Shown here: positions 27,801 through 44,186 of the stretch, one piece after another
Numbering within the stretch: the stretch's first letter is position 1
How the letters are laid out: every line of letters begins with the position of its first letter
DNA from: an uncultured bacterium
GTDB taxonomy: Bacteria; Chloroflexota; UBA5177; JANWHV01
Assembly: GCA_963827235.1 (NCBI GenBank)
Contig: CAWHAE010000009.1
Span: 1,024,001-1,088,000, forward strand
Length of the DNA: 64,000 nt
Direction of reading: 5' to 3'
Notes under the pieces: model-generated
Told to the model about the DNA's origin: nothing
Seen by the model: only the letters and a program-made list of their open reading frames with translations
The model's database searches: none
Position numbers and translations under genes: made by a program

Positions 27801-27823
27801 AACCCCGACTCCGAGAGTTTCAT
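24821..27823 (-). CDS. tnsAB: Natural TnsA-TnsB fusion transposase (1000 aa)
   Basis: N-terminal TnsA: YPSRKM, FES, DQP, TPDF, VECK. C-terminal DDE: LDHT, RPWLT..VDAFSR, VDGGSEF, ERLFGT, KYDPFD. GGAGAG RBS before ATG 27823. Confidence 0.9.
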   Translation of the reverse strand: MKLSESGFAAWCGEVGLSDAARAEVAGIRGSPPSRLVSGRAGNVHGRYPSRKMGHSVQFESHTVELPFIMLSEFDDDILEIWDQPPQIPLDYQAKAGRRWRGMHTPDFFVLAARGAWWVECKQEEKLQELSVEQPNRYQRVGDTDWICPPGQAYAAQFGLEYRVFSSKAINWKFQENISFLAEYLQCESPVEVRAELRQALIDIVCSQPGVRTHDIIDAESLQRFPNVADSLYLLIARGEVCVDLHSEQLARRPGMRIYADAESAQSWALAEQAKTEAVSRIARIRALTPGATVTWRGGRFSWIGGDADNVRLVGPSGDVLAVSHRDFDDLVGRGEIANLPELPAHTGSMTPAGRERMLHASRQDHAEATRRHPFVQLLLRGEHLPAKAPPLRTCQQWCKDYRDAEVCYGNGHVGLLPKPRSGNSSQRLDVRLYAIMRDVIRDKHLGQNALGLKRGRAWSSYVEVCRLAQEKGLPPPSHVTFYRAVNNTSLYEQKVRREGRRAAYGIKEDVPLEIEGPERHGVRAWEMAHLDHTQLDVQLMDMYSNRVLGRPWLTLMVDAFSRRILALYLTFDEPSYRSCMMVIRDCVRRWNRLPSALVVDGGSEFDSVYFESLLTQNGCIKRQRPSAEPRHGAIGERLFGTLNTQLIHNLEGNTTVMRNVRQVTVSVDPARHAIWSLETLYLEICAWAYGTYDTAVHRGVLDSPRNAFEQSVRLSGERDFKRIAYDDDFLRETLPTTRTGVAKLNKKGQVQLHHVIYKVPSPIPGRFNGTRVEVKYDPFDAGYILVRVGRWVKCFSYYHSHLFKGMSERLLRLASAELRAKNRASYRASKTLNVGDLAAYLHSVDVTQAVLMQRKRDALHIAVNQRIAGGPVPAGGVAPAQSALVVRPVAPEDVNHEPVLTLLTVRIDDAVLPGNPEDKVQDSALQVSPAPSDRAEGSPTVSQQSPESDRPPLVLLPSSSQQVLRNRSTVPTEHGVRGAYDADDLALDFDAIPTTERLT

Positions 27824-28234
27824 GATACTCTCCAGCGAGCCGTTGACCGCGGCAACCAGCTTGAAATCCGCCTGGTGCTTGTAGCCACCATCATCGCGCA
27901 TGCTTGCCCGGCACCCAGACGCACCCTGCGCCGAGAAGCCGCAGAATTCGGGCCTAGTGTACACCGCACTCTACCCATTGAATACTCCCAATTCAGTTCG
28001 CCAGACCTCACGGATGGTGCGCGGGCAATCGGCAAGCCTCTGCAGTTTCGCGTCACCCAGTCGCTACTAAGCTCGAGCGGCTAACACCGACGTCAGAGGA
28101 ACGGCCCGGAACACCGTCCGTAGCTCCGCCGCCAAACCCGATACAACACCTGCGACGGCTCTAGTTGCCGACAACAGCAGTTCCCGCATCATCGTGCGCC
28201 CACCTGCTCCACCTGCGTGTCAACATGTAACTTC

Positions 28235-28975
28235 CTATAGGAGCCCCATAACCTCCGCCCAGGCAAGCGTAACATCGAGTTCCTGGCCGTTCTCAAGCGA
28301 AACTAAGATGATCCTCGACATGCAATGGGGCACCACGGCAAGACACTGCTGCAGCACGTAGTGATCGCGAGCCGAGAGTATCCGTACGGCCGACCAATCC
28401 GCAGCGATCGGAAGCACAGGGCAAAACTCAAGCACTTCGACCGCACCATCACTCGCCTGTACCACCGCGTCGGGGCGGGACCCTAACCCGCGACAGCCGT
28501 AGACCGCGTGCAAGTACGGTTGGACAGCCACCAGATGCCGGCCCATTCTCAGACAGGGCACATCCTGGGCATACGAGCGCAACCAGTAATATCCGGCAAG
28601 ATCCGGATGATCGTCTCCGCCAGCGTGCACCCACGCAGCCGCCCAGATAGCGCCGAGAGCCGCGCGCTCGATGATGGCACCTTGCAAGAGGTGCCGATGT
28701 ATCGCCACAGCGGCGCAATGCTGCGCCGTGTACCAGAGCGATGCCAGGCGCGACATGTCCGAAGCACAAGCCAATCCGTGCACTAGCTTGTGGTATTCAC
28801 CAAACCCCCAGCGCCAATCTGGATAAACCGGCGCGTCGTAAAGGGCGTGCATATCCAGACCGGGAAAGCAGCGCCCTTCTTGGTTCCTGTACACCACCCG
28901 TCCCACCTCACGCAGAGTCATCGTTCCCTTGTCGCCTTCGGTCACAAGAGGGGTCACAATGCGCACATAGCGCAA
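28235..28975 (-). CDS. Degenerate PD-(D/E)XK-like protein, paralogue of 29772-30542
   Basis: Shares AVAxHR, LGxxWxAAWVxAGG, AGxxWLxxYA and RPD...DGxVxxLE; lacks the C-terminal Cys cluster; start uncertain. Confidence 0.6.
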   Translation of the reverse strand: MRYVRIVTPLVTEGDKGTMTLREVGRVVYRNQEGRCFPGLDMHALYDAPVYPDWRWGFGEYHKLVHGLACASDMSRLASLWYTAQHCAAVAIHRHLLQGAIIERAALGAIWAAAWVHAGGDDHPDLAGYYWLRSYAQDVPCLRMGRHLVAVQPYLHAVYGCRGLGSRPDAVVQASDGAVEVLEFCPVLPIAADWSAVRILSARDHYVLQQCLAVVPHCMSRIILVSLENGQELDVTLAWAEVMGLL

Positions 28976-29430
28976 TCACGGCCAGTAAAACCATCGGAGA
29001 CACCACGTCTCGATGCTGGATAGACCTGCAATTCACGCAACAACGACTCAATTCGTGTGTGGACGGAACCCAACCGCAACTGTATACTGCCGCTGGATTG
29101 CATCACCTCCAGACCGGTGAACGAATGTGTGGTTCCACGGCCAGCTCGTTTCTCCTGGATACCTTTGAGGTCCTGGTCCTGATCAAGGTGTGTCACGGCA
29201 TCGGGCGAGACGCCGATCCACTTGATACCGGTCATCGGCCCCACGATCACGGCAACCGCCCAATCCTGCATCCGCGTATACTGCGTCGCTTGCATGAGAG
29301 CGACCACGGCAGCGAGCGCTTGCGGCAGCGTCTCGCAACTCGCCACGATCGTGCCCTTCTTTACGCTGACATCCGGCCGCGGGCCGCGGCTATGGCTGCG
29401 CCCAAACACGTCATCCATTTCTACCTCCAT
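28954..29430 (-). CDS. Hypothetical protein
   Basis: 158-aa ORF co-oriented within the nuclease-tns block; GGAGG precedes the second Met. Confidence 0.45.
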   Translation of the reverse strand: MEVEMDDVFGRSHSRGPRPDVSVKKGTIVASCETLPQALAAVVALMQATQYTRMQDWAVAVIVGPMTGIKWIGVSPDAVTHLDQDQDLKGIQEKRAGRGTTHSFTGLEVMQSSGSIQLRLGSVHTRIESLLRELQVYPASRRGVSDGFTGRDCAMCAL

Positions 29431-29771
29431 ACACCGGGTCTATCCCGACGCGACACGCGCCATGCCTGACGCACAAGACCAACTGCGAATTGCGATACGC
29501 GCGGGGCTACACGCGGCCAACGGAGCGTTCAAAGACGCCACGGGGGCGTCGCAGGCGTCTGCTGGTGAGGGGTCAATAGGCAGGGATCCAGAGTCAGAAC
29601 GCCTGACCACCCTCACGTCCTCCCTCCTCCTGCGGGGACGATTACCTGCAACGGCGCCGAGCGGGGCGCTGGCCTGCCGAGGGTCACAGACAGAGTTGTC
29701 GTGCGAGGGATCGAACCCATCCAAGATGTGGGGTGGATCACCGGTCGCCGAGCGCGGCGCCGGGACGCGCG

Positions 29772-30542
29772 CTAGGTCGCGCGGTACGGCAGGATGAAGC
29801 TTTCGGGGCAATCGTCGCGGAAGGAGCAGCGCGAGCAGGTATCGAGCGTCGACGTTGCTTTCAGATCGTCCGGACGCAGCGCGTCAAGCCAGTCCAGCAC
29901 CGATCGGAGGTGATCCTGCACGTCCTCCCAATCCATAGTGATGTCGATCATCTCGTAGGTGTTGAGGTCTGCCACGACGACGCGATGCCAGCAATCCCGC
30001 ATCCGCGGCGGGACCTGCGGCCCTCTCAGAACGATGCCGTCGATGGCTGCCATCATGTGGGTGGCGAGCACATCCAGCGTGGGATGCTTGGCCGAGGATA
30101 GCTCCAGCGCGACGACGGTGCCGTCCGGATCTTCGGCCAGCACGTCCGGCCGGGCCTGAAACACGCGGCCGTCGAACACGTTCTGCAGGGTGTACTCCAC
30201 GGCGACGATACGCCGGCCTTCAACGGCACCGATGAACGGGTTTTCGCGAGCGTACCGCACGAGCCACGCGAGCCCGGCCGGGTTGGGCTCCGCTTCCCCG
30301 CCGGCCCGCACCCAGGCCGCCTTCCACAGATCGCCGAGCACGTTTTCGTCCACGACGGCGCGGCGCTGCGACAGGAGGCGGTGCAAGGCGGCCACAGCGG
30401 TATGGCGAGCCCGATACGCGATCAGAAACTCGTTGGGCGCTGGCGCCGGCGCGTTGCCGTATTCCCCGCGCACGATCTGCCGGTACGCCCGCACGTCGCA
30501 GGCGCTCCCCGCCAGCACTGCCGTCTTCGTAATGGGTCCCAC
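29772..30542 (-). CDS. Cas4/AddB-like PD-(D/E)XK nuclease-fold protein with a probable 4Fe-4S staple
   Basis: GAGAGGAGA RBS before GTG 30542; N-terminal Cys (SACDVR); VEY...ARPD...ALELS; C-terminal CxxCxxxxxC. Confidence 0.7.
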   Translation of the reverse strand: MGPITKTAVLAGSACDVRAYRQIVRGEYGNAPAPAPNEFLIAYRARHTAVAALHRLLSQRRAVVDENVLGDLWKAAWVRAGGEAEPNPAGLAWLVRYARENPFIGAVEGRRIVAVEYTLQNVFDGRVFQARPDVLAEDPDGTVVALELSSAKHPTLDVLATHMMAAIDGIVLRGPQVPPRMRDCWHRVVVADLNTYEMIDITMDWEDVQDHLRSVLDWLDALRPDDLKATSTLDTCSRCSFRDDCPESFILPYRAT

Positions 30543-30605
30543 GGTCTTGGTTCTCCTCTCCGGTATGGCCTCTAGACATCGCTCTATCAGTAGCGTACAA
30601 TTGCA

Positions 30606-30647
30606 ACTATACGCGGATGGACGATCAATGTCAAGAACACGTGTTCT
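30606..30647 (-). promoter_or_regulatory. Near-consensus promoter TTGACA-17-TATAGT with an adjacent perfect LexA-type box AGAAC-ACGT-GTTCT
   Basis: Minus-strand -35 at 30629-30634 and -10 at 30606-30611; palindrome at 30634-30647. Confidence 0.8.
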
Positions 30648-30707: not shown

Positions 30708-31251
30708 ATGAGCGACCAAGAAGGACCGGCGCGATCGCCAAAACGCGGGGAGGGTCGCCGGCAGCGCACGCCCATCACGGAGGTCGATCAACGAGTGCAG
30801 GATCGCCTGGTACGGTTCCGCAAGTACCTCACCGACGTGCTGAAGGAACGCGGCATCTCGATGCGCAAGCTGTCGCTGCAGACCGGCAAGTACGAGGGCT
30901 ACTACCTGAACCTGCTCACAGCGCCGGAACTCGGAGCGCAGGCGCTGCCCACGCCCGAAGACCTGCGCCTGCTGGCGCCGATCATCGGCGCCCCGGTCGG
31001 CCAACTGTTCGAACTGGTCTGGGGCATCACGCGCTCAGAGATCGAGAGCGATCTCAGAAGCGGTAGCCGCGCACTCCGGCGTCTGCGCCGAGAACCGCAC
31101 CGGGTTTTCCAGGGCAGAGTTCGCCGACTTTACGCCCCAAGAGCAAGAGGAGATCCGCAACTTCCTGGGCTACGTGCGCGCCAAGCAGGAGAAGCGCAGG
31201 CTCGAGCAGGCCGAGGCACGAGCGAACAAAGGCGGCAAGGAGCGAAAGTAA
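30708..31251 (+). CDS. ImmR-like XRE HTH repressor, apparently frameshifted near 31056 so that it reads through into immA
   Basis: LKERGISMRKLS HTH; the typical C-terminus FTPQEQEEIRNFLGYVRAK lies in the +1 frame and ends at a TAA overlapping the immA ATG. Confidence 0.7.
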
Positions 31252-31730
31252 TGAATGCCTGGCCACCCCTTTGCCTGCCGCCTGTGGACCCGGATCAGGT
31301 GGCGCAGGACCTCGGCATCGCCGTGAGCTACTGGGACCGCTTGCCGTGCCTGGGCATCTTCGCACGCACTCGCGACGGCTGCGCCGAAATCGCGCTGCGC
31401 GGAGATTTGCAACAACCGCGGAACGAGCGATTGCGCCGGGTCACGCTGGCGCACGAGCTGGGGCACGCGGCGCTGCACGCTGGCACGTACACCTCGCCGC
31501 TACACTGCCACCGGCCCGACTTCACGGCGTCGCGCATCGAGTTCCAGGCCGAGCGCTTTGCCGGCGAGATGCTCTGCCCGGAGAGCCTGGTACAAGCGCT
31601 CTGCCGCGATCGCGGCGAGATCGGACCCGAAGAGATCGAAGAACTAGCAGACGCGGTGCAGGCTCCGAACGAGTTCGTCGGCTGGTGGGTAGCGTTCTTG
31701 GCCCGAAGCGGTCGAATAGTGTTGCCTTGA
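31251..31730 (+). CDS. ImmA/IrrE-family metallopeptidase (DUF955)
   Basis: AAGGAG RBS; PVDP..VA..LGI, RVTLAHELGH and EFQAERFAGEMLCP. Confidence 0.9.
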   Translation: MNAWPPLCLPPVDPDQVAQDLGIAVSYWDRLPCLGIFARTRDGCAEIALRGDLQQPRNERLRRVTLAHELGHAALHAGTYTSPLHCHRPDFTASRIEFQAERFAGEMLCPESLVQALCRDRGEIGPEEIEELADAVQAPNEFVGWWVAFLARSGRIVLP

Positions 31731-32202
31731 GCGCGGGACAAATCCACACATCAAGCGCAGTAATTTAGGCGGCCAAATCGATCAGCAGCGTAACCATCCA
31801 TGCGGGAGCACGAAGGAGCGGGTTGATGCGAGGAGAGGGATGGTCTTCTGAGCGTTGGGCGCGTAGAAAGGATCGAGCATGGGGATCTGCTTGCGAACCG
31901 GGAGCTATCACCAGCAACCACGTTGATGAAACTGCAAAACCGCATCGAACGAAATTTGACGCAAGCCCACAACAGAACGATGAGGAGAGGCCAATGTGAT
32001 TCTATGCAGTAAACAAGAGCAATGACTGGTCATAGCGAAATGATCATACGGTCCAGAACGGCGTTTGACGCGGCTTGGACCTATGGCAACGATAGTGGAA
32101 AGCGTGAGAGGCGGATCTATTCTACGGAACAGAGCGTAGGTGTAGAATTGGTGCGAACTGAAAAGGCGCGAGGGAAACTACGGGAGCGAGAGGTAAGAGA
32201 AG

Positions 32203-33012
32203 ATGACGGACCGGTCGAAGCAAGCGATCATGACCGTTTGCACGTTCCTGTCGTTGGTTTTAGCGTCTATGGCCACGGTACCGGTAGCCCAGGCGCGCGG
32301 CCTCAGCCCGCGGACGCTGGTCGCGAGTGACTTTTTTGGCGCTACCGGCGCGACGTCCGTCTCCCTGAGCGGCGGGCAAGCGGAAACCATTGCAGCCGTA
32401 CCATACCTCAGTTACCTGAGTTTTCTCTGTGGCAAACCGGGGAACGGCGGGGATGCGTCCATTTCTCTCAACGCCGCCACGCTGGTTGGCTACAATGCCC
32501 TGTCATTCTCGCTGGGGATGAGCGATAAGACGTACGCGCACGGTTCGTCGGGCGAGTTGCAGGTTCAGCGAGACGGCCATGCATATGCTACGTACCACGT
32601 CTCCTCCGGGGTACCAGCACGACACGTCATCGTGTTCTTCGGTGGACACAAAATCATCACCTTAGATGGACACTACGACACAGGGGGCGGCTCTGTCGAA
32701 CTGCTGGTCGCGGTCCCGATGGCGATCGTGGTGGGCCCGGCACTGCCAATCCCACTCAGCCTCAACGCCCCCTACGTGGTAGCCGGCGGAACGCAGACTG
32801 CCATCGTGGCGACTACAGCGGCATCGTACGTCACGCTGGTAATCACGTACGGCTCAGGCGCGCCTCTTGTCGTCGGGCCAAAGCTCATCGGACCTGACGG
32901 GAAGTATACGTACACCTGGACCCTGCCTGCAGCTCAACGCGGCCGCGTGCGCGTAACCTTGATCGATGGCGCAGGGAAAGTCACGCAAAGCTCATTCACG
33001 ATAACCGGCTGA
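32203..33012 (+). CDS. Secreted hypothetical beta-rich protein
   Basis: Signal peptide ending VAQA; GAGGT RBS. Confidence 0.6.
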   Translation: MTDRSKQAIMTVCTFLSLVLASMATVPVAQARGLSPRTLVASDFFGATGATSVSLSGGQAETIAAVPYLSYLSFLCGKPGNGGDASISLNAATLVGYNALSFSLGMSDKTYAHGSSGELQVQRDGHAYATYHVSSGVPARHVIVFFGGHKIITLDGHYDTGGGSVELLVAVPMAIVVGPALPIPLSLNAPYVVAGGTQTAIVATTAASYVTLVITYGSGAPLVVGPKLIGPDGKYTYTWTLPAAQRGRVRVTLIDGAGKVTQSSFTITG

Positions 33013-33159
33013 GCAGGCCGCGGACTTACCAACACGAACGTGCCCAGCGACCGTAAACACGAAAGAGAGAACAACACGGCAACAAGTTGAGGGAAAGAAG
33101 CTCAACACGTGAGCGCACGCAAAGCCTAGAGAAGGACGAAAGCGAAAGTAGGTAGAAGA

Positions 33160-33747
33160 ATGACGCGCGGAAAAGGCTTACTCCTTGTCATCGTACTGGT
33201 GGCAGTCGGAGCGGCCATTGCCGTCTACAGCGCAAACAAGAGCGGAGGAACGCTGCCAGGTTCGTCCGCATCGCCGTTGAGCCTAGACTTTTGCAACGAC
33301 GCGCACCAAACGATGAGCTTAAGTCCGCGCTGCCAGTCCGATGACCACAGCCTGGACGGGAAGCTCCACGACTACGAGCTGAGCGTGACCGGGACGAATA
33401 CCGCAGGCTACGATCCGCAGGCCACCCTAACCTACGAGGTTGGCACGCAGCAGAGCGACGGATCGTACGCGTATCGGGCGCTGACGTGCGGTGGCGGCAG
33501 TCTGAGCAACCAACAACGGCTCAGCGCAAACGGCCTGAGCATGTACGACGCCTACTACGACAACTCGATAGTGGATGGCTATCATGCGACACCAGGCTGC
33601 GCGTTCTTTCCCGCGGATCCCAATAAGCCAGGATCTGAAGGAGGATCCTTTGCCGCACCAGGCAACTACCGCTTCCGAGTGTCCGTGGTCGATCCTGACG
33701 GCACTGTCATGCAGCAAGCCACGTACGATGTGAGTGTCGCAAGTTAG
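33160..33747 (+). CDS. Membrane-anchored or secreted hypothetical protein
   Basis: N-terminal TM segment; C-terminal PGNYRFRVSV beta strand. Confidence 0.6.
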   Translation: MTRGKGLLLVIVLVAVGAAIAVYSANKSGGTLPGSSASPLSLDFCNDAHQTMSLSPRCQSDDHSLDGKLHDYELSVTGTNTAGYDPQATLTYEVGTQQSDGSYAYRALTCGGGSLSNQQRLSANGLSMYDAYYDNSIVDGYHATPGCAFFPADPNKPGSEGGSFAAPGNYRFRVSVVDPDGTVMQQATYDVSVAS

Positions 33748-33934
33748 GTGCGGGGTCAGCGGCCGGAGAAACCACGAGCAAGAGGTACATAGAGGTACAA
33801 AGCAAGACAGGACCCGGCAGGCCACTCGAGAGCCAGCATTCAGGACGGTTCGGACCACCTGGTCTATGCCAGGTCTCCCGGGCGGGACGCATCAGCGATC
33901 ACAGGGCATTCGGATACCCACCGTCGGCAGGAGC

Positions 33935-35236
33935 CTAACCAACGATACCATCCGTACTTGCCAAAATGGTGCCGTAGGCACCAACAACCAGACACCGACG
34001 ATCGCCACGGCACGTAACACCCAGGAGCGGAACGCTAGTACCGGACGCTCTTCGAAGCCATGTGGTGCTCCCAGCCGCTGCGGCCAATATGATGCCGCCA
34101 TCACCAACGGCCAGACAAGCGCCACTGCTCGAGCAGGTAAGCGCGAGCACCTTGTCGTACGGGTCCGGCTGTGGATTACTGTGAGCAGTCCAGGTGGCAC
34201 CGCTGTCGCTGCTCGCCAGGAAGGTGCCGTCTTCTCCGACGGCTCGACACTCCTTGGTGGTTGGACAGACGATGCTACCCAGATAGCTCGTGGTACCCGA
34301 CGGCATGCTCTTCCAGTGAGCGCCGGCGTCCGTACTGATCAACACAGTGCCGGCATCGCCGGCGACCAAGCACCTGCTCGTTGTCGGGCACGCGATCCCC
34401 CCTAAGCCATGAGGAGTGCCCGAGGCCCGTTGACGCCAGTCTACGCCACCATCCGTACTGACGAGGATGACGCCTAGCTCGACGCCCAAGCCGACTTCTC
34501 CGTGACCGCCCCAGCCCACGGCGAGACAGTTCCTGGCACTCGTGCAGGTAACATCTTGAACAACACCCTGACCTCCCTCCGTCTCCCCTAACAGCCAGGG
34601 AAGCAGAATATGCTGCTCCCTCCACGTCACCCCGCCGTCTGAAGTGGCCAAGATGAGCGCGCGCATGCCGCGATTTCCGACAGCAATGCACGTGCGCGAC
34701 GTCGGACACGTGACGCCACGGAGGAGATCTCGAGAGTCGGAAAAGCGAACGACCCAGGTTCTTCCGGCATCCATACTGACGAGAGCTGTGCCGCCATAAC
34801 CGACGGCAACACACATGGACATCGTCGGGCAAGCCACGCTGTCCAAAGTCTCGGTCGTTCCCGAGGCCACGACAACCCAGGCTGAAGATGGCGGAGGCAC
34901 CGACGCCGGAGACAGTCCGGATCGTACTGCGATACCGATGACACCAGGATTTGGCGTCAACGCCCGGGCGGCCGCAGCCACAGATACACCGGTTGCGCGA
35001 TACATCAAGGCCGTAGTGTCGTGAGCAACGAAAGCGGCGCTAGAATCCACAGGGCCGCGACTCGCAGGAGACCCTATGGGGAACTGAGTGGTCAACGGCA
35101 AGGATGGTGTGACCCAAGCCGATCGTAGCGGGTAGGCGTGAGCATCGGCTCGGGGTTGAGCAGCTAGAGAATTAACCGTAGAAATTGCGAGCGTTGCGCA
35201 CGCCACCAGTGCGACAAACAATCGGATAGGCTTCAT
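33935..35236 (-). CDS. Secreted BNR/Asp-box (YCF48-like) beta-propeller repeat protein
   Basis: Repeats of LxxVxCPTxxxCxAVGxxGTILxSTDGGxTW; signal peptide from MKPIRLF; GGAG RBS. Confidence 0.8.
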   Translation of the reverse strand: MKPIRLFVALVACATLAISTVNSLAAQPRADAHAYPLRSAWVTPSLPLTTQFPIGSPASRGPVDSSAAFVAHDTTALMYRATGVSVAAAARALTPNPGVIGIAVRSGLSPASVPPPSSAWVVVASGTTETLDSVACPTMSMCVAVGYGGTALVSMDAGRTWVVRFSDSRDLLRGVTCPTSRTCIAVGNRGMRALILATSDGGVTWREQHILLPWLLGETEGGQGVVQDVTCTSARNCLAVGWGGHGEVGLGVELGVILVSTDGGVDWRQRASGTPHGLGGIACPTTSRCLVAGDAGTVLISTDAGAHWKSMPSGTTSYLGSIVCPTTKECRAVGEDGTFLASSDSGATWTAHSNPQPDPYDKVLALTCSSSGACLAVGDGGIILAAAAGSTTWLRRASGTSVPLLGVTCRGDRRCLVVGAYGTILASTDGIVG

Positions 35237-35602
35237 CACTACTGCTCCGTTTCGCTTTGGTCTCCGAGCGATCAGCATTTCCCAAGCAACACACATCACA
35301 CGTATCATAGGCCAATTGGCCCACCTGTCAACGAACGCGGCCATGGATAAGAAGCAATGAGCCGAAGTGAAACACGAGCCCAAGTGGATGGGTGATCCGC
35401 GCGCGAACGCAAGCTTGAACGTCAGCGGAGGTCCCACCAAGCCCAACAGTCCCACAGGAGAAGGATAGCCTAGCCGAAAAGCACACGCCCTACCTGCAAT
35501 AACCGGGATAGCTAAACAACCAGCAGAGTCAGCACGCCATTGCATCATCCGCGCAGCCGCTGCACCAGCACGCTTTCACCGATATTGCACAGACAGTGAG
35601 AC

Positions 35603-35631
35603 TTGTTTCGCATTAGAGTGAAGCCTATACT
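35603..35631 (+). promoter_or_regulatory. Candidate promoter TTGTTT-17-TATACT for the WXG100 locus
   Basis: Correct spacing, about 370 nt upstream of ATG 35999. Confidence 0.4.
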
Positions 35632-35998
35632 AGTGGGTGAACCCGAAAGGACTGACCTTTATCAACCGTGCGACAACTGCGAACCAATCGCTGCTTAACC
35701 CAAGAGCACTTGGCAGCGCTAGCCGAACTAGCGGTGGCAACGATCCAAAACGCCGAAAGAGAGGGGCAGTACCGAGTCGGCGATTGTGCGCGACAGTGTT
35801 GATACGAAGGATAGTTATGAGGGATGGCAACGATCACGGGAGTGAAGATCGCACCGACGCGGACTGTGCTCACAGGGGGTCATTCGCGCGCTAACGCAAG
35901 GGCTTCGATGGGGTAGCCGAGCCATGTACATGCCGCTGGGCGTGAGGTACGCTCGTGGGCAATAGGCGCTTTAGTTCATTAGTCGTGGGAGACGTCGA

Positions 35999-36271
35999 AT
36001 GGCTCAAGTGATTGTAAGCCCGGAGGAGGTACGGCACTTTGCGCGCCAGTTCAAGACGTGCAACGCCCAGCTTCTAGACCTGACAACCAGACTGCGTGGG
36101 CAATTCAGCAACCTCGGAGAGACATGGCGCGACCAAGAGTATCAGCGCTTCGCGGTAGAGTTTGAACAAGCTTCGAGAATCCTGCAACAATTCATGCGCC
36201 AGGCCGATCAGTACATTCCCTATCTAGAACGAAAGGCGGCAGCGGCACAGGCCTTCCTGGACCAGCGGTAA
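35999..36271 (+). CDS. WXG100/ESAT-6-family protein
   Basis: 90 aa, helical; MAQVIVSPEEVR.FA; central LGETWRD. Confidence 0.85.
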   Translation: MAQVIVSPEEVRHFARQFKTCNAQLLDLTTRLRGQFSNLGETWRDQEYQRFAVEFEQASRILQQFMRQADQYIPYLERKAAAAQAFLDQR

Positions 36272-36276
36272 CGTCG

Positions 36277-37329
36277 ATGAACGAACAGATCAATGTCCGT
36301 TCTGTTGACACTTTGGAGCGGCTCCACGCCGAACTCAAGCGGTTCGCGCATGATGCACCGCTGCCGTTGCAGGCTGCCGCCGGAGAAATTCACCGCACCC
36401 TTGAATGGTTGGGAGAGCGACGAGGGTACTGGCAAGCCCGCGTGCAATTCTTCACGCTGGAGGTCGAGCGCGCCCGCCGTGCCTACGAGGCTTGTCTGCA
36501 GAGCGGCGCGCGCGACGCGCGCACAGGCCAGTACAGCCAGCCGGACTGCTCGCCACAGTACGAGGCAATGGAGAAGGCGCAGGCGCTTCTCCGCGAAGCT
36601 ACAACGGAGCTTGCCAAGGTCACAGCCGCACTGCGAACCGTACAGCAAGCGGTGGAAGCATACGAGAGACAGGCACGACGGCTAAGCGGCATGCTAGGCG
36701 CAGACGTGCCACGCGGCATCGCGATGCTGGGACGCAGTATTGAGCGTCTGCGGACATTCATCGCCTTGAGCGTACAGCACAACTGGTCAGTGGCCCATGG
36801 ATCGACCGTGATGCGAAGCGACGCAGCGCCGGGCGGCAATGTCTCCGACGCGGCTCAGACAGGCCCGCCGCGAATCGAAGCGATCGCGAGTCCAACAGTG
36901 CAAGCCGAACCGTGGGCCGAATACACGTTTCACGATGCAGGCTCGCGCACCCTGCTGGTTCTGGGGCACGTTGTCGGCGATAAGTGTTACATCCGAGCCC
37001 ACGATCTCGGGATAAAGGACGACGTGCCTCGTGACCGTCCATCAGTAGGCACGGGCGGATACGCGAACGTCGTGTTGGAACGCAACGAGCGCGGGGACGT
37101 GACAGGTGCACGGCTACAGGACATCATGGTCACTCCCAGCCATCGCCTCGGCGGCATCGGCAGCCAGTTACTGGAAGAAGCGGAACGGTTCGCCCGCGAC
37201 CAGCACGCTCCGGAATTGCATGGCGAGGCACCAGTCGAATCCAACGTACAGGAATGGTACGAGCGTCGTGGATACGCATCGAGATCGACGGACGGAATGC
37301 CACAGATCTTCAAGCAGTTGGCAGAATGA
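36277..37329 (+). CDS. Helical WXG/LXG-like N-terminal domain fused to a C-terminal GNAT acetyltransferase domain
   Basis: NVRSVDTL...EIHRTLEWL...YW coiled coil; GNAT motif A IMVTPSHRLGGIGSQLL and WYERRGY. Confidence 0.7.
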   Translation: MNEQINVRSVDTLERLHAELKRFAHDAPLPLQAAAGEIHRTLEWLGERRGYWQARVQFFTLEVERARRAYEACLQSGARDARTGQYSQPDCSPQYEAMEKAQALLREATTELAKVTAALRTVQQAVEAYERQARRLSGMLGADVPRGIAMLGRSIERLRTFIALSVQHNWSVAHGSTVMRSDAAPGGNVSDAAQTGPPRIEAIASPTVQAEPWAEYTFHDAGSRTLLVLGHVVGDKCYIRAHDLGIKDDVPRDRPSVGTGGYANVVLERNERGDVTGARLQDIMVTPSHRLGGIGSQLLEEAERFARDQHAPELHGEAPVESNVQEWYERRGYASRSTDGMPQIFKQLAE

Positions 37330-40300
37330 CCAACCGTGATGCGAAGGCCGCATCTGAAACCGCGGAAGGTGGGAGCCCAACTATGATCGAGCACGACGCG
37401 TTGCAGGAAGAAGCTGAAACCATCCGGCGGGCAGCAGCCATAGCATCGGAACACCGGAAGCTGGTCGGACAGTACAGCGCCGACGCGAGCGACGCAAAAC
37501 AGAGACTCGAACAGCAGCTCACGACGCAGCTCCAGGGCATAGAAGCCACATACAACGACTGCGTGTCGACCATCGGCGAGCTAGACAAAAGGTTCCCGGC
37601 CATTCAAGGTGATGCGGTTGCTGGCGGCTTGCTCTTGGGATTTGGCATGGAGGCAAGCACGAACGACCTTGCCACATGTGCGAAAAGGCTAAAGGACTCC
37701 AAGAGTCAACTGGATCAGGTAGATCCAACTTGGTCGATGTACGGTCCAGGCTATTTGCCAGCATGGGGACTGGGAGCAAGCGTCGTTACTGACGTGATAA
37801 TTGCCGCGATAGTGTCTGCAGCAGGTGGAGACGCCGGAACAGGGTTTGCCATCTGTTTCTGGTTCACCGTGGGATGGCTTAGTATCGCGCTCCTCGCAAA
37901 TCTAGGATCTACGACCGAGTTCAGCCACAATCGAGAATATAAGTCTGCGACCGAGTTCGGATTTCCTGCGGTGCGTTCCGTTAAGCGGGAGCTACACGCT
38001 GCCAGAGACAAATCGGTCAAAGTTGCAAGGAGCACGCATGAAAGGCTGCTCGGGGGTATTGACGCGAATCTGAAGAGCAAGTGCGACGCGCTGACGGAGG
38101 ATGCACGCCGGCAGTTGGGTGAAGAAACCGCGAGGTTGTCCAAGCTTGTTGGAGAACTAGGATACGCGGGATTAGCCTGGGACGACACAGGCTGGGAGGA
38201 CTACGCGCCCGGAGTGCGGAGCCCAAGCCACGTGCGAGTCGGCCGGGCTTCTACAGCGCTGGCGGGCGTCGAAATCATGGGCCCCGCCCTGGTAGGCATC
38301 GTACGGGAAGAAAACGTCTTGATCAGGGCAAGCGGAGCAGCCAAGGACCAAGCGGCTGGAGCGGTGCAGTCGATACTCCTTCGGCTTCTGGCAACGATTC
38401 CGCCGGGCATGGCAGAGTTCGTACTCCTGGACCCGGCGGGCCTCGGCCAGAACGTTGCCAAATTCGTGGCACTCGCTGACTACGATCGCGATCTCATTGC
38501 CAACAAAGCGTGGTCCGAACCCGAGCACATCGAGCGACAGCTCGCCGATCTTTGCGAGCACATGGAAAATGTCATTCAAGGGAAGCTCCAGGGCAAGTAC
38601 GAATCGATAGAGGAGTACAACGAGCAAGCGGGCGAGACGGCGCAGGCGTACCGCTTTCTCGTAGTGGTCGGCTTCCCCCAAAACTTCAGTGAAACAAGCG
38701 CAAGCCGCTTAGCCCGCGTCGCTCTCAACGGTCCCAAGTGCGGCGTGCACACCTTGATTGTCGTAGACACCGAACAGAAGATGCCTTATGGCTTCAATGG
38801 GGAAGATCTCGGCCGCAACGCATCGGTGATCGAGTGGGACGGATCTCGGTTTGTGTGGAAGCAGAAAGGCTTCGACACGTGGCAGCTAACCCTTGATGCC
38901 CCGCCTGACACAACCCGCTTCGACGAAATCTTGGCAGCGGTGGGTTCGCGGGTGAAAGATGCCAGGAGAGTCGAGGTGCCTTTCGATCGCATCGCCATTC
39001 CGAGCGACGCATGGTGGACTGGAGACAGTCGAACCGAGATAGCTGTGCCCATCGGCAAAGTGGGCGCGAGAAAGACTCAGCATCTTGTGTTCAACAGTCA
39101 GGATCAAGTGCACGCGCTAGTAGCTGGGCAGACCGGGTATGGCAAGTCGACGTTGTTCCATGTCATGATCACAAACCTCTGCTTGGCCTACAGCCCGCAG
39201 GAGCTAGAGCTTTATCTCGTCGATTTCAAGAAGGGCGTGGAGTTCAAGCCGTACGCCGAGCATCGCCTGCCGCACGCGCGAGTGATCGCCATTGACAGCG
39301 AGCGCGAGTTCGGCGTAAGCGTCCTTCGCGGCCTCGACACGGAGTTGAAGCGCAGAGGCGACGCCTTTCGCAGCACGGTTGAGCAGAATATCGCTGGATA
39401 TCGCAAGGCACATCCCGATCAAGCGTGCCCAAGGATCGTGCTGATCGTCGACGAATTCCAGGAATTCTTCACCGAGGACGATGCGATCGCCCGAGAGGCC
39501 GGCCTGTTGCTGGACCGGCTGGTGCGGCAAGGGCGCAATGTTGGGATCCACGTGATCCTGGGCTCGCAAACACTGACCAACGCTGGACAGCTTGCACACA
39601 GCACGATCAGCCAAATCGCCATTCGCATAGCTCTGCACTGCAGTGACAGCGATTCTCGGCTGATCCTCGCGGAAGACAACCCAGGAGCGCGTTTGCTCAA
39701 TCGTCCGGGCGAAGCCATCTACAACACAGGCAGCGGGCGCGTGGGGATGGAGGATCAGTTCCAAACCGTGTGGCTCAGCGCGGAATGTCGGGAACAGTAC
39801 CTAACGCGCATCGATGACCTTGCCCGCTGGCAACCCCGGCGCCCACAGCGGATTTTTGAAGGCAACGCTCCGGGCGAAATCGGCACCGACATGCTGCTGG
39901 CGCTGACACGAGGCGCGGAAAGCCAACAGGCTCAACAAAGAGGAGCAAGGATCTTGCTCGGCGAGGCTATCGCGGTTCAGGAACAGCCATCAACGGTTCG
40001 CTTCCGTCGCCAGGGGGGAGCAAACCTTCTGATAGTGAGCCAGCAGGAAGACACCGCACTGGCCATGATCACGCTGTCGCTCGTGGGCCTAGCTGTGCAA
40101 TTGCCGGCGTCAAGCGGCGACGGGGATTGGCATCGACCGGTGATGCTACTAGACTTCAGCAGTGGTGACGGTCCGAGCGCGGGACACTACAGCGACCTTG
40201 CCGGAACCCTGAACGGTCGAGTACGCCGGCTAGTACGCCGACAGGTGCCAGAATGGATTGATAAACTAGCGAACGAGGTGAAATGTCGCATCGATGCGGA

Positions 40301-40766
40301 GGATGAAGCAGCGTTGCCAGCACGCCCTGCAAACACCATGTTCCTCGTGGTGCACGGGTTGCAGCGGGCGCGAGACCTGCGGCAAGACGATGGCTACTCG
40401 CTTCCGGCATACGGCGCGGAACCGGCCGGCCCGAATACGGCGCAGCAGTTCGTAACAATCTTGCGAGACGGGCCGGATGTCGGCGTGCATACGATAATCT
40501 GGTGCGACAGCATGACCAACCTGACGCGCACTCTCGATCGACGAGCGCTACGGGAGTTCGGAACCAGAGTCGTGACGCAGATCAGCGCCGAAGACTCGGC
40601 GAACCTGATTGACTCACCGGTAGCGAGCAAGCTGGGCAGCTATCGTGCACTGCTGTACAACGAGGACGAAGGGACACTCGAAAAGTTTCATCCTTACGGG
40701 CTTCCTTCGAAAGAGTGGCTAGAAGACGTGTGCCAACAGCTGATGATGTCGACGGCAAGCAAGTGA
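37326..40766 (+). CDS. FtsK/SpoIIIE-family (EssC/EccC-like) ATPase with two TM helices and three ATPase-like domains
   Basis: ATGA overlap; AGQTGYGKST, LYLVDFKKGVEF, LIVDEFQ and QGRNVGIHVILGSQ; degenerate flanking domains (GPKCGVH, GPDVGVH). Confidence 0.9.
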   Translation: MTNRDAKAASETAEGGSPTMIEHDALQEEAETIRRAAAIASEHRKLVGQYSADASDAKQRLEQQLTTQLQGIEATYNDCVSTIGELDKRFPAIQGDAVAGGLLLGFGMEASTNDLATCAKRLKDSKSQLDQVDPTWSMYGPGYLPAWGLGASVVTDVIIAAIVSAAGGDAGTGFAICFWFTVGWLSIALLANLGSTTEFSHNREYKSATEFGFPAVRSVKRELHAARDKSVKVARSTHERLLGGIDANLKSKCDALTEDARRQLGEETARLSKLVGELGYAGLAWDDTGWEDYAPGVRSPSHVRVGRASTALAGVEIMGPALVGIVREENVLIRASGAAKDQAAGAVQSILLRLLATIPPGMAEFVLLDPAGLGQNVAKFVALADYDRDLIANKAWSEPEHIERQLADLCEHMENVIQGKLQGKYESIEEYNEQAGETAQAYRFLVVVGFPQNFSETSASRLARVALNGPKCGVHTLIVVDTEQKMPYGFNGEDLGRNASVIEWDGSRFVWKQKGFDTWQLTLDAPPDTTRFDEILAAVGSRVKDARRVEVPFDRIAIPSDAWWTGDSRTEIAVPIGKVGARKTQHLVFNSQDQVHALVAGQTGYGKSTLFHVMITNLCLAYSPQELELYLVDFKKGVEFKPYAEHRLPHARVIAIDSEREFGVSVLRGLDTELKRRGDAFRSTVEQNIAGYRKAHPDQACPRIVLIVDEFQEFFTEDDAIAREAGLLLDRLVRQGRNVGIHVILGSQTLTNAGQLAHSTISQIAIRIALHCSDSDSRLILAEDNPGARLLNRPGEAIYNTGSGRVGMEDQFQTVWLSAECREQYLTRIDDLARWQPRRPQRIFEGNAPGEIGTDMLLALTRGAESQQAQQRGARILLGEAIAVQEQPSTVRFRRQGGANLLIVSQQEDTALAMITLSLVGLAVQLPASSGDGDWHRPVMLLDFSSGDGPSAGHYSDLAGTLNGRVRRLVRRQVPEWIDKLANEVKCRIDAEDEAALPARPANTMFLVVHGLQRARDLRQDDGYSLPAYGAEPAGPNTAQQFVTILRDGPDVGVHTIIWCDSMTNLTRTLDRRALREFGTRVVTQISAEDSANLIDSPVASKLGSYRALLYNEDEGTLEKFHPYGLPSKEWLEDVCQQLMMSTASK

Positions 40767-40805
40767 GTCCGCGCCAAGGCACTCAGGGAAAGGATGCGCT
40801 GACCA

Positions 40806-41021
40806 ATGGAGAGCCTGAGCCGAGCAGGCAGCGAACTAGACGCCATAGCCGGACGGTTGCAACGGCAATGGCATGAAGCAGAAGACGCGTGGCGAGACCC
40901 GGTCCAACGGGATTTCGAAAAGCGACACGTGGCCCCATTGTTCAGCCAGATTAGGGCGACAAGGGACGAACTGGATCAGGTGGCTCACGCGGTACAGCAA
41001 GCTCGAGCAACGGTTCGCTAA
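40806..41021 (+). CDS. Small WXG100-like protein
   Basis: 71 aa, helical; W...AWRD.V..DFE; GGAAAGGA upstream. Confidence 0.65.
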   Translation: MESLSRAGSELDAIAGRLQRQWHEAEDAWRDPVQRDFEKRHVAPLFSQIRATRDELDQVAHAVQQARATVR

Positions 41022-41301
41022 CGACACAAGCAGCACCTGCCGAGCGAGGCTTACTGTTTGCACAGATACATCGTATTGAGCCCATAGTTGAAGCACGTTA
41101 CTGCCCTCGAGAGTGAAGGCTCACCTGTGTCCGTGCGGCCGCCGGGCTCCAGGATACACGCAACTGCCACAGCAGCACGCCCCTCCGGGTGCGGAAGGGC
41201 GTCCCTTGTAAGGTGAGTTGCCGAATATCCACCAAGTGCTCGGTAGCAAACGCGCCCGCCATCTTCTCCTGGAATCCTGGCTCACAGCACCCCCTGTAGC
41301 G

Positions 41302-41595
41302 GCTGGCGCACGAGGGGGAGGGCATGCGGCGCTGCACGGCGGCACGTTTACGTCGCCCCTGCACTGCCACCGGCCCGACTTCACGGCCTCGCGCATCGAG
41401 TTTCAGGCCGAGCGGTTCGCGGGCGAGATGCTCTGTCCGGAAACGCTCGTACAAGCGCTCTGCCGCGAGCGTGGGGAGATCGGACCAGAAGAGATCGAGG
41501 AACTGGCCGACACCGTGCAGGCTCCCAACGAGTTCATCGGTTGGTGGGTCGCGTATTTGGCGAGAAGCGGTCGCGTCGTGTTGCCGGGACCATAG
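41302..41595 (+). pseudogene. Orphan 3' fragment of immA (copy 2; HExxH broken by a frameshift)
   Basis: Homologous to 31445-31730; 8 of 89 aa differ. Confidence 0.9.
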
Positions 41596-41695
41596 ACACT
41601 CGGTGCCGCCATCCATGACTCCACCGGGCACGCGCTTCCGCGACTATTGCCGGCACAAACTCGACACAGTACACGACGGGACTGACCGAATACCA

Positions 41696-42595
41696 ATGCA
41701 GAGTAATAAGACGACTTCACCCGACACCAAAGCCACAGGGGGGCGCCTGCTGCTCGCTTCTCTCAATGTAAACGGCATCCGATCTGCAACGAGGCGCGGG
41801 TTTGCGAGTTGGATCCGCCAGGCTGCTCCAGACATCCTGTGTCTGCAAGAGATCCGCATAACCGAGCAGCAACTCCAAGCGGCGTTCGTACCTCCGTCGG
41901 GGTACCGACTCTATTGGAACCATTCCACGCGGCCCGGCTACAGCGGCACGGCGCTGCTCTCGCGTCCCAAGCCACAAGCAGTCAGGTTTGGACTCGACGA
42001 TCGCAGCGGCGACCCCGAGGGAAGAACCATCGTCGCAGAGTACCCGGGCTTCACGCTTATCAACTGCTACGTCCCGAACGGCAACAGCAGCGACGAACGG
42101 CTCGCGTTCAAGATGGCGTTTTACGAAGCATGCCTGGACCAATGCAGACGACTGTTGTCTGAGGGAAGGCATGTCATCCTCTGCGGCGACCTGAACACAG
42201 CGCACCGGGAGGTAGACCTGGCAGACCCATCTGCGAACGCGAGACGGTCGGGTTTCCTGCCGCAGGAACGCGAATGGATAGACAGGCTCATTCAGTCTGG
42301 CTTTGTGGACACATTTCGCCATTTCTACCCCGGCGTGTCGAAGCAATACACGTGGTGGCCCTATGGCAGAGAGCGAGATGCTGGTTGGAGGTTCGACTAT
42401 ATCTTCACCTCGATAGGCATAATCGATCGTGTGCGCGCGGCCTTCATTCTGCCTGAGGTGGCGTGCAGCGATCATTGCCCTATAGGGATCCAACTGCATG
42501 TTGAAGGCACTCCTAGTTCCGAGCCCGGTTCGACACTTGAAGCGCCAGACTTTCCGGACGACGAAGGCCGGTGTGGTCAACTAACGCTGTTCTGA
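41696..42595 (+). CDS. xth: Exodeoxyribonuclease III / AP endonuclease
   Basis: SLNVNGIR, LCLQE, GYSG, EGR, YVPNG, GDLNTAH, DTFR, YTWW, GWRFDY and SDHCP; ends in QLTLF. Confidence 0.95.
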   Translation: MQSNKTTSPDTKATGGRLLLASLNVNGIRSATRRGFASWIRQAAPDILCLQEIRITEQQLQAAFVPPSGYRLYWNHSTRPGYSGTALLSRPKPQAVRFGLDDRSGDPEGRTIVAEYPGFTLINCYVPNGNSSDERLAFKMAFYEACLDQCRRLLSEGRHVILCGDLNTAHREVDLADPSANARRSGFLPQEREWIDRLIQSGFVDTFRHFYPGVSKQYTWWPYGRERDAGWRFDYIFTSIGIIDRVRAAFILPEVACSDHCPIGIQLHVEGTPSSEPGSTLEAPDFPDDEGRCGQLTLF

Positions 42596-42600
42596 GATGC

Positions 42601-42842
42601 TCACGTCGCCGCTGCACTGCCACCGGCTGGACTTCACAGCGGTGCGCGTCGAGTTCCAGGCCGAGCGGTACGCTGGGGAGCTGCTCTGCCCGGAGACGCT
42701 CGTACAAGCGCTCTGCCGCGAGCGCGGGGAGATCGGGCCCGAAGAGATCGAGGAACTAGCCTATGCGGTGCAAACTCCCAACGAGTTCATCGGCTGGTGG
42801 GTGGCGTACCTGGCCCGAAGCGGTCGCGTCGTGTTGCCCTGA
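42601..42842 (+). pseudogene. Orphan 3' fragment of immA (copy 3; lacks HExxH)
   Basis: Homologous to the last 79 codons of immA; 12 of 79 aa differ. Confidence 0.9.
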
Positions 42843-43046
42843 AGAACAGGCGGACTTCAATCAATTGGGATCACAGCTGCCGATCCCTGATCTAGGCGAA
42901 CTCTTAGACAGCGAACATCCTGCCGTCATGTTTCTGTCACGGAATGCGCACACGCGAGCCTTAGGATGAGGATGCAGGCTGATCAAGCAGCAGACCATGC
43001 GCGGATCACGCGCGACGCCACACGGAAGCAGAAAGACGAAGACAAT

Positions 43047-44186
43047 ATGGAGCCAAACGAGGACACACCGACGCAGCCGCAGCTGCCCAACACGACGCAC
43101 CGCCCATCGAGAAGGCGACGGTGGCAGGTGGCCGGAGCCGCCGTGTTGATCGGCGGGCTCGCCGCCGGCACGTTCGCGCTCAATCAGGGTGGGCAAAGCT
43201 CCGTAGCCAACGCCAGCGCGAACGGTGGCGTTGTCGCATCGCAAGTCTCTAGCCAAGCCCAGACGACGCCGATGCCAGGCACGAACCAAGGGCCAGGCGG
43301 CAGGGGCGGCTTCGGCAACATGGGCGGGCACGGCTTCGGCCAGGGCGGCATGGGCGGCTTTGGGCCGGGCGACATGAGTGGACGGTTCGGGGCGAGTCTG
43401 ACCGTCACCAGCGTGAACACGAGCACGACCCCGAACACAATCGCGGCGACCGGCCGCGGCAACCAAACCATCACCATCACCGTCGCCAGCACCACGACGT
43501 ACACCATGGCCGGTGCACCGATCGCGCTCGCCGGCATTGACACCGGCGCTCAGATCTCCGTGCAAGGCAAAGGGACATCGCGTACGGCGATAGCCGCCAC
43601 CAGCGTCGAGGTCATCCTGCCCTCGGAGCGCGGCGTGGTGAGCGACGTGAGCGGCTCGACACTCACAGTAACCGGATTCGACGGGCGCGCGTATGTCGTG
43701 ACCGTGGGCACGAGCACGCGCTATCAGAAGGCCGGACAGAGTGCGGCGGTGTCCGATGTCGCGAACGGCACGGCGATCCAGGCTGAAGGCACGCTGAATT
43801 CCGACGGCTCTATGAGCGCGCTGCTGGTCACCATTCAGACACCGCGCCTGTCGGGACAGGTCACGGCCGTGTCCGGGACCAGCGGATCGTATTCCTTCAC
43901 CATAGCGGCACGTCAGGGAGCCGCGTCCCAGACCGTCACCACAACCTCGGGCACGCTCTTCGTCGATCTGTCGGGCGCTGCCGTACAACCTTCCAGCATC
44001 ACGACAGGAACGCGGATGACCGCCGAAGGTAGCCTGAGCGCCGACGGCAAGACCATGACAGCACTGCGCATCACGATCCTGCCGACCGGCAACGGTCCTC
44101 GCGGCCAATTCCACCGTGGCAACACAGCCGGCCCGGCTGCAACCGGAACCCCCGGCACTGCATCAGCAACGGGACCTGGAGTCTGA
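43047..44186 (+). CDS. DUF5666-like OB-repeat exported protein
   Basis: TM/signal segment, Gly-rich linker and three GxVxxV...TxY...GxxIxxxG...A repeats. Confidence 0.7.
   Translation: MEPNEDTPTQPQLPNTTHRPSRRRRWQVAGAAVLIGGLAAGTFALNQGGQSSVANASANGGVVASQVSSQAQTTPMPGTNQGPGGRGGFGNMGGHGFGQGGMGGFGPGDMSGRFGASLTVTSVNTSTTPNTIAATGRGNQTITITVASTTTYTMAGAPIALAGIDTGAQISVQGKGTSRTAIAATSVEVILPSERGVVSDVSGSTLTVTGFDGRAYVVTVGTSTRYQKAGQSAAVSDVANGTAIQAEGTLNSDGSMSALLVTIQTPRLSGQVTAVSGTSGSYSFTIAARQGAASQTVTTTSGTLFVDLSGAAVQPSSITTGTRMTAEGSLSADGKTMTALRITILPTGNGPRGQFHRGNTAGPAATGTPGTASATGPGV

Follow-up and report, generated by a model that had tools for sequence, protein, structure and literature searches.

Truncated immA copies in a Chloroflexota genome as a possible record of successively arriving immR-immA modules

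The window analyzed here, a stretch of 64,000 nucleotides (nt) from the genome of an uncultured bacterium of the Chloroflexota (UBA5177; contig CAWHAE010000009.1 of assembly GCA_963827235.1), contains three copies of immA, the gene of a short M78-type metallopeptidase, all in the same orientation: an intact gene at 31251-31730 and two orphan fragments of its 3' part at approximately 41302-41595 (f1) and 42601-42842 (f2), each in front of different DNA. Judging from their sequences, the three copies are old, diverged alleles that were formerly under purifying selection and not duplicates generated in situ. A plausible interpretation is serial displacement. According to this model, to which we assign a little less than even confidence, the array would document how related immR-immA modules of the CapH/CapP type arrived one after another at one spot in a region rich in mobile elements and defence genes.

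Three copies with a common 3' end

The earlier note on this DNA, made from the letters alone, had described an intact immA followed by about 9.6 kb of cargo, a 3' fragment, xth, a second fragment and more cargo. This arrangement is borne out, and the gap between immA and f1 measures 9571 nt. A repeat search of the window unites the copies in one family (D1) with 31461-31726 as reference; the second member (41320-41585) is 86% identical and the third (42573-42838) 80%, the latter being an ungapped value for a stretch whose first ~28 nt are non-homologous. When 31380-31730 is compared by BLASTN with the whole genome (7.98 Mb, 21 contigs), 41302-41585 (85%, E 6.6e-88) and 42602-42842 (85%, E 5.8e-75) are recovered, and beyond a trivial 29-nt match on contig C12 the genome contains no further immA 3' copy. 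At the protein level, a 340-aa frame that runs through immA (see below) matches the fragments at 90% over its residues 251-340 and at 83% over residues 260-340. Pfam M78 domains (PF06114) are predicted at two loci of the genome, intact immA being one of them.

In the MAFFT alignment the stop codon marks the end of homology in all three copies, and the sequence beyond it is unrelated; the spacers behind each copy have no homology anywhere searched. Together with BLASTN, the alignment thus confirms that the copies are co-oriented, end at the immA C-terminus and start at different points, as had been claimed. Fragment f1 (41302..41595, plus strand; GC content at third codon positions, GC3, 0.81) corresponds to immA codons 65-159. 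Its HExxH codons carry a 2-nt insertion and several substitutions, its stop codon has changed from TGA to GGA, and the frame runs on to a TAG at 41593-41595; no convincing start is present, and the exact open reading frame (ORF) is absent from the protein collection. Fragment f2 (42597..42842, plus strand; GC3 0.85) is an 81-aa ORF corresponding to codons ~80-159, annotated as a protein at source (P0153). Its ATG lies 1 nt past the xth stop codon, homology to immA begins at ~42586-42601, and HExxH is missing. Hence, neither fragment has an intact HExxH motif; both are open throughout the immA-homologous part, and their break points lie ~27-45 nt apart in immA coordinates. No promoter-like sites were found inside or just after the fragments.

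The geometry of an intact gene, an element and then a 5'-truncated, co-oriented 3' end matches that of islands at tRNA/tmRNA genes, and the copies might accordingly be att-site duplications left by site-specific elements that replaced the immA 3' end and displaced the old one. A 20-nt stretch identical in all three copies would suit such a site; yet a shared run of this length lies within chance expectation (our estimate, 0.2-0.4), and the fragments start at different points. Pfam predicts no integrase or recombinase domain in 28-47 kb, the window contains no tRNA genes, and a Tn7-like transposition set upstream lies outside the array with its cargo side pointing away. We therefore regard att-site duplication as highly improbable. 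The same results bear on the proposal that the array is integrase-free: this holds for the array itself, but not for its vicinity, since the Tn7-like set lies 3.3 kb upstream of immA.

An assembly artefact, in which variants of one locus from several strains or species are strung together, has to be considered as well. The bin measures 8.0 Mb with 9.06% contamination, as against 4.4-5.4 Mb for genomes of the same genus, and it contains at least one likely homopolymer indel error, in an xth paralog on contig C16. However, at 41302 and ~42600 non-homologous DNA adjoins the interior of immA, a kind of joint that cannot result from overlap-based assembly. The array is situated inside a 1.3-Mb contig, and Logan assemblies likewise contain immA and f2 proteins of exactly the same sequence. 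In one sequencing run (word share 0.10; 12 records), two 151-nt contigs match 40944-41236 at 100% and stop short of the joint; joint-spanning or bridging pieces are absent from these 12 records. On balance, an artefact has barely any probability in our judgement.

Divergence, selection and decay of the copies

Over the 79 codons shared by all copies (237 nt), the three pairs differ at 34, 35 and 32 nt (13.5-14.8%, i.e. 85-87% identity). The differences fall mostly on third codon positions, with 4/2/28, 8/5/22 and 8/3/21 changes at positions one, two and three; on the protein level, the intact gene differs from f1 at 8/88 residues and from f2 at 12/79. Both statements agree with the earlier note, whose counts (8/89 and 12/79) were essentially right. 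The Nei-Gojobori dN/dS values of the pairs are 0.047, 0.156 and 0.092 with dS of 0.79, 0.51 and 0.56, and the synonymous excess relative to neutrality is pronounced (binomial P 1e-12 to 2e-6 across pairs). Because these ratios are far below 1, simple duplication followed by decay is rejected, and the divergence was acquired when each copy still belonged to a functional gene. That the copies are former functional sister alleles, as had been suggested, is also in agreement with the existence of full-length sisters in other metagenomes (P0156, 83% identity; P0157, 76%).

Private differences are interleaved along the entire length, and no conversion tracts or mosaic patterns are seen. The longest identical runs of the pairs measure 26, 20 and 29 nt. 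Since the copies are roughly equidistant and lack mosaic tracts, they look like independent alleles, not like nested duplications. Furthermore, because the retained parts are ~14% diverged, present-day excision or swapping between them should be rare; the short identical runs and the missing gene-conversion mosaic thus weaken the proposal that cargo could be excised or exchanged via the repeats.

The copies differ in their state of decay. Private changes are distributed as 11 synonymous and 6 non-synonymous in the intact gene, 13 and 1 in f1, and 7 and 8 in f2, and the ratios of f1 and f2 differ (Fisher p=0.014). In a comparison of the 79 shared residues with the full-length relatives P0156, P0157 and P0002 as outgroups, f2 shows five replacements at otherwise invariant sites (P89L, S94V, I96V, D134Y, A138T) and f1 shows one. 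We infer from these changes that f2 has been free of constraint for longer than f1. Decay rises downstream, which fits the prediction of a push-down stack in which older copies are shifted downstream.

What is the present role of the fragments? Most likely they are inert scars. A different explanation would be that selection keeps them as products, for example as C-terminal ImmA peptides without catalytic activity, which would bind to the repressor or to the complete peptidase. The private changes of f1 and the open frames of both fragments would be expected under this assumption, as would the annotation of f2 at source and the position of its ATG beside the xth stop; in the structural model, moreover, the fragments would cover the cysteine loop and four C-terminal helices. 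Against this stand the 8 non-synonymous changes among the 15 private ones of f2 and its five replacements at invariant sites including D134Y, as well as the lost stop, the missing start and the unrecorded ORF of f1. The helices are predicted to pack on the active-site helix, which the fragments lack. Chance open frames are common at this GC content, and a search among proteins of 30-86 aa yields f2 itself as the only short homolog. Maintenance by selection therefore seems very unlikely to us.

Composition and content of the blocks

The DNA between and behind the copies differs from immA in composition. Block A (31731..41301; 9571 nt; Pfam annotation) contains genes with a GC3 of 0.59-0.71. Two signal-peptide-like ORFs (32203-33012 and 33160-33747) and a BNR/Ycf48-like gene on the minus strand (33935-35548) are followed by a WXG100 gene (35999-36271), a gene combining a coiled coil with a GNAT domain (36277-37329), an FtsK/SpoIIIE ATPase of the EssC-like type (37254-40766) and a second WXG-like ORF (40806-41021), behind which lie 280 nt without a match; in the spacer 40767-41330 no further homology was detected. 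The core of this block, which resembles a type VII secretion system (T7SS), is ~46-53% identical to four Chloroflexota loci, and immA is present in 0/4 of them. In two of these genomes (L060, L061) the module of WXG100, GNAT N-terminus, WXG-like gene and FtsK is syntenic, and two other loci (L059, L062) contain the ATPase without the rest of the module. The second WXG-like gene lies behind the ATPase in the window and ahead of it in the module of L060 and L061.

Block B consists of xth (41696..42595, plus strand), a gene of the exodeoxyribonuclease III family (Pfam Exo_endo_phos, 4.4e-33) with a GC3 of 0.66, whose C-terminal tail of 32 aa has no match anywhere searched. A paralog on contig C16 is 54-60% identical; at C16:1028603-1029375 its reading frame breaks off at a TT(T) run and continues in a second frame, which suggests either that the assembly contains homopolymer indel errors or that this is a housekeeping xth that has been broken. 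The first gene of block C encodes a DUF5666 protein (42966..44186, plus strand; Pfam 5.7e-11) and has a GC3 of 0.77. Its paralogs include one on contig C10 (47% identity) and others in two genomes of the same genus (G001, G002; DNA identity 64-72%), there without synteny.

The genome median of GC3 is 0.78 for long ORFs. At every boundary between immA and a block, GC3 steps from 0.80-0.85 to 0.59-0.71, and the GC content of 20-70 kb is 60-63% compared with 65% in the genome. These shifts in GC3 and GC indicate that blocks A and B are probably of recent foreign origin. Because GC3 differs so strongly, an immA module and the block trailing it did not share a long history.

The intact peptidase and its regulatory module

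Intact immA (31251..31730, plus strand; GC3 0.80; P0001) encodes 159 aa and belongs to the M78 family of ImmA, IrrE and CapP, as Pfam, PADLOC, AlphaFold2 (AF2) and Foldseek indicate in concert. The Pfam profile Peptidase_M78 (PF06114) matches with 36 bits at a cut-off of 22 (E 7.1e-9), and the PADLOC profile for capP with E 5.1e-15. The protein has the motif H68-E69-L-G-H72, C86 in the following loop, and E101; A67, H68, E69, H72, C86, A100 and R102 are invariant among nine family members. The spacing of 29 residues between H72 and E101 equals that between H100 and E129, the zinc-site residues of Thauera CapP according to the accessible text of Lau et al. (2022; 10.1101/2022.04.27.489752). The AF2 model (pLDDT 86, pTM 0.83) has its top Foldseek matches in IrrE (3DTE, 3.4e-4; 3DTI, 6.6e-4), PprI (8SLM, 5.8e-4) and CapP (7T5T, 2.4e-3), with query TM scores of 0.52-0.62. 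It comprises the peptidase domain alone and ends at residue 159. Hence, the C-terminal helix-turn-helix (HTH) and GAF domains of CapP proper, which serve in the sensing of single-stranded DNA (Lau et al. 2022, same text), are missing, and the protein is a member of the family but not a CapP proper.

Directly upstream lies a putative XRE-type HTH gene resembling immR and capH (30708..31251, plus strand; GC3 0.82-0.85), which was recognized by inspection of the sequence. Its frame changes near 31040-31070, where a GC3 frame plot switches phase (near 31050), and its last frame ends with a TAA at 31249-31251 that overlaps the ATG of immA (TAATG). The 340-aa 'fusion' ORF annotated at source (P0151), for which no Pfam HTH match is obtained, is probably a read-through of this frameshift; otherwise immR would be a pseudogene. 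Given the break of the C16 xth paralog at a homopolymer of T, the immR frameshift may likewise be an assembly error.

On the other side of immR, a divergent operon of three ORFs extends over 28235..30560 on the minus strand. The proximal gene (29772 to ~30560; GC3 0.83), whose start was placed with the help of a promoter-like site, resembles PD-(D/E)XK nucleases of the Cas4 type; it is followed by a 158-aa ORF (28954-29430) and a distal second PD-(D/E)XK-like paralog (28235-28975), both with a GC3 of 0.66-0.67. The Pfam match to PDDEXK_1 is weak (E 0.0036), the two paralogs are 35% identical to each other (E 2e-26), and atlas features match phage PD-(D/E)XK/Cas4 clusters with a score of 0.97. 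In the gap between the operon and immR, consensus matches alone point to back-to-back promoter-like sites (30573..30634): TAGACA-17-TACAAT on the plus strand (30573-30601) and TTGACA-17-TATAGT on the minus strand (30634-30606).

CapH/CapP-type regulators control a divergently transcribed operon, as far as the accessible part of Lau et al. (2022; 10.1101/2022.04.27.489752) describes them, and the same layout is found here: the regulator pair lies upstream of the PD-(D/E)XK operon and on the opposite strand. Because the operon controlled by CapH/CapP is always divergent, the PD-(D/E)XK genes to the left are the likely target of the ImmR/ImmA pair by analogy. Accordingly, the earlier claim of a cargo functionally anchored on immA is weakened. 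By the same analogy, the genes behind immA would be neighbours and not a regulated payload, and immA would be a positional landmark.

Proposed history of the array

Under the displacement model, the oldest resident allele would persist as f2, adjoining the native-looking DUF5666 gene. A second module would have arrived with xth, and an illegitimate joint between its right end and the resident immA, immediately behind the HExxH codons, would have left the 3' end of the resident gene as a remnant. A third module, comprising the PD-(D/E)XK genes, immR and the present immA, would have come in together with block A (T7SS-like) and cut the second allele short in a like manner, which would have left f1. 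Each event would require one non-homologous joint, combined either with homologous pairing on the left or with a single crossover involving a circle. The order of events, the joint arrival of module and trailing block, and the mechanism of recombination are what we infer from this arrangement. The model accounts for co-orientation, 5' truncation, divergence under selection, the gradient of decay and the steps in composition while needing the fewest events.

Several observations weigh against this history. First, GC3 differs between each module and its trailing block, and an insertion of foreign blocks into pre-existing modules fits this equally well. Second, since the retained part is 13.5-14.8% diverged and its identical runs do not exceed 29 nt, homologous pairing inside it would have a very low efficiency; the homology anchor would have to lie further left, where there is nothing to compare. 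In this respect the array also departs from rhs arrays, whose core fragments are reported to be identical to the main gene. Third, both break points adjoin the HExxH codons, which no model explains; by our own arithmetic, break points drawn uniformly over 477 nt would lie so close together with a chance of ~0.19. Fourth, no relatives with context were found in this immA clade, as 4/61 relatives and 46/401 genomes of the phylum match only distantly. Finally, an immA-like stretch in a genome of the same genus (L008; G002:C352, at a contig edge) loses homology on its 3' side, unlike f1 and f2; it begins at the contig end, is 71% identical over 35 aa, and ceases to be homologous after a 'GIGP' motif.

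The first of these points leads to a competing history, in which three complete immR-immA modules once stood in tandem and the left parts of two were overwritten by unrelated foreign insertion-deletions, with immA taking no part in the capture. The similarly high GC3 of the three immA copies (0.80-0.85) and the low values of blocks A (0.59-0.71) and B (0.66) agree with this scenario; the T7SS-like module is found in other Chloroflexota without immA; and regulation of the CapH/CapP type concerns an opposite-strand operon, so that immA is not tied to the genes behind it. The surroundings, a patchwork of prophage remnant, Tn7-like set and defence genes, also speak for it. Yet five events are needed (three acquisitions and two deletions) as compared with three for displacement, and both deletions must end in the same stretch of ~45 nt within immA, each time sparing the 3' end. 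In addition, no remnants of a second or third immR or divergent operon are seen upstream of f1 and f2. We consider tandem modules unlikely, though they deserve serious attention. Less probable still, and rather doubtful in our opinion, is a history in which the immA 3' half serves as a reusable homology arm: DNA pieces or circles combining an immA 3' part with genes of any kind would be taken up behind the resident immA and could be re-sorted later. In a bolder extension of this history, the 81-aa f2 product, translated next to xth, may act as a decoy without catalytic activity on the pair of repressor and peptidase.

The implications differ accordingly. If serial displacement took place, orphan stacks would not be peculiar to toxin loci, and any conserved gene bordering a variable region could preserve the succession of foreign DNA arrivals. 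In phyla that are poorly sampled, acquisitions in defence and mobile-element islands could thereby be dated and put in order. If the homology-arm history were true, displacement in the style of rhs would extend to a gene of regulatory function at the head of a variable region in Chloroflexota. If, on the other hand, the modules stood in tandem, the fragments would be ordinary debris, useful solely as markers of three past immR-immA modules.

Comparison with known arrays and regulators

The array had been likened to Rhs orphan stacks, and part of this likeness stands. As in rhs arrays, an intact gene is followed by co-oriented fragments of a conserved part, variable in length and each in front of different DNA. 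In the accessible text of Jackson et al. (2009; PMC2935791), new arrivals at rhs loci shunt old C-terminal ends downstream without a dedicated recombinase, and displacement by a circle and a single crossover is proposed. What is conserved here, however, is the 3' end of a gene for a regulatory peptidase, as far as the stop codon, and not a toxin core with a variable in-frame tip; the variable part consists of whole unrelated genes (T7SS-like cluster, xth, DUF5666) instead of toxin/immunity pairs. The immA fragments are ~14% diverged, whereas that text reports rhs fragments as identical to the main core; near-identical cores that would allow homologous crossover, as expected of an rhs array, are therefore not found among the immA copies, and neither is an in-frame toxin tip or an immunity gene.

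A second parallel is provided by the T6SS (type VI secretion system) effector-immunity arrays of Vibrio cholerae, which are proposed to arise via homology-facilitated illegitimate recombination according to the accessible text of Kirchberger et al. (2017; PMC5361080). They share with the immA array a conserved upstream anchor, a non-homologous joint on the far side, and old material kept downstream; the orphans resemble complete genes of other strains in both cases, as far as that text covers the T6SS arrays. In contrast to the probably inert gene ends described here, the orphans retained in T6SS arrays are immunity genes with selective value, and the T6SS model rests on many genomes, the immA array on one.

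With the pairs CapH/CapP, IrrE/DdrO and ImmR/ImmA, the module has in common a putative XRE repressor gene followed by an M78 metallopeptidase gene, divergent to a putative effector operon. The peptidase also shares HExxH, the downstream Glu and the Cys in the intervening loop with these pairs, and the predicted fold matches IrrE, PprI and CapP. Unlike in CapH/CapP, the peptidase has 159 aa without an HTH or GAF domain, and the repressor frame is broken. In full-text literature searching, the texts reached contained no description of stacked 3' orphans of immA or capP. The displacement reading is plausible and in part supported, and it would represent a known kind of process with a new kind of anchor gene, the evidence being a single locus.

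A classical rhs orphan stack exists in the same genome: contig C8 (5600-28100) contains at least eight co-oriented copies of ~540 nt with 85-95% identity, 2-5 kb apart, of the end of an Rhs/YD-repeat core. Similar local repeat arrays are located at C15:95-119 kb, C12:68-89 kb and C10:204-213 kb.

Relatives of immA in other genomes

An exhaustive HMMER search assigns immA to a small clade of 16 proteins (E<=1e-10), in which 90% clustering identifies P0156 and P0157 as the closer full-length relatives; one homolog comes from a Chloroflexota bin. Among 400 genomes of the phylum, the best foreign match of a family-profile search has E 1.6e-14. With the 340-aa frame as query against genome contigs, 0/85 stretches were obtained, and a word-index protein search likewise gave none. 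An alignment of the three copies detected two distant loci (38-46% identity), and an alignment of five sequences detected one locus in metagenome contigs (33%). With P0002, P0004 and P0003 as queries against genome contigs, the source contig of P0004 (L046) and distant matches alone were retrieved; in viral contigs there were no matches or matches at 27-49%. DNA searches of the same genus returned solely the DUF5666 paralogs and the G002 fragment, the locus in G001 being without synteny.

The homolog in L046, 42% identical to immA, is located at the edge of a TIR/IS3 region beside housekeeping genes and is not accompanied by fragments. The ORF upstream of it is unlike immR in either frame, and the locus says little about the array of the window. 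Broken members of the immA clade occur elsewhere, as two short proteins reveal: P0018 (83 aa) resembles a P0002 that has lost an internal segment between two 'ADLA' repeats and with it the catalytic centre, and P0017 (64 aa) is an ORF that begins inside the gene at a QAER motif.

Surroundings of the array

The array lies within a patchwork of prophage remnant, Tn7-like set and defence genes. To its left are phage structural genes and the Tn7-like transposition set (22064..27964, minus strand; Pfam annotation; GC3 0.58-0.65), a tnsAB-tniB-tniQ arrangement with a fusion of TnsA-N, rve and Mu-transposase-C domains (1047 aa), a TniB-like ATPase, and a TniQ protein with an HTH domain. The set is presumed to have its right end turned towards the distal PD-(D/E)XK-like gene, opposite the 3' end of the latter; no convincing terminal repeats were identified at the ends of the set.

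To the right of the array, SbcC/SbcD-like genes, a CapH-like XRE gene, an OLD/AriA-like ATPase, a C5 methylase and an SspF/DndF-like gene are found. In 44603-52243, the SbcC-like and SbcD-like genes are followed by two ORFs of 590 and 377 aa on the minus strand, which have no Pfam match and face the divergent CapH-like XRE gene (PADLOC capH, 2.3e-13). These two ORFs might be a HerA/NurA-like pair, a guess accompanied by a weak PADLOC match to mad8 and a 28%-identical ORF in another locus (L043). The remaining part of the window, 52583-64000, is defence-island-like: it contains the OLD/AriA-like ATPase (AAA_15, 9e-70), the C5 cytosine methylase, an HhH-GPD glycosylase-like gene, the SspF/DndF-like protein, and two large ORFs without matches.

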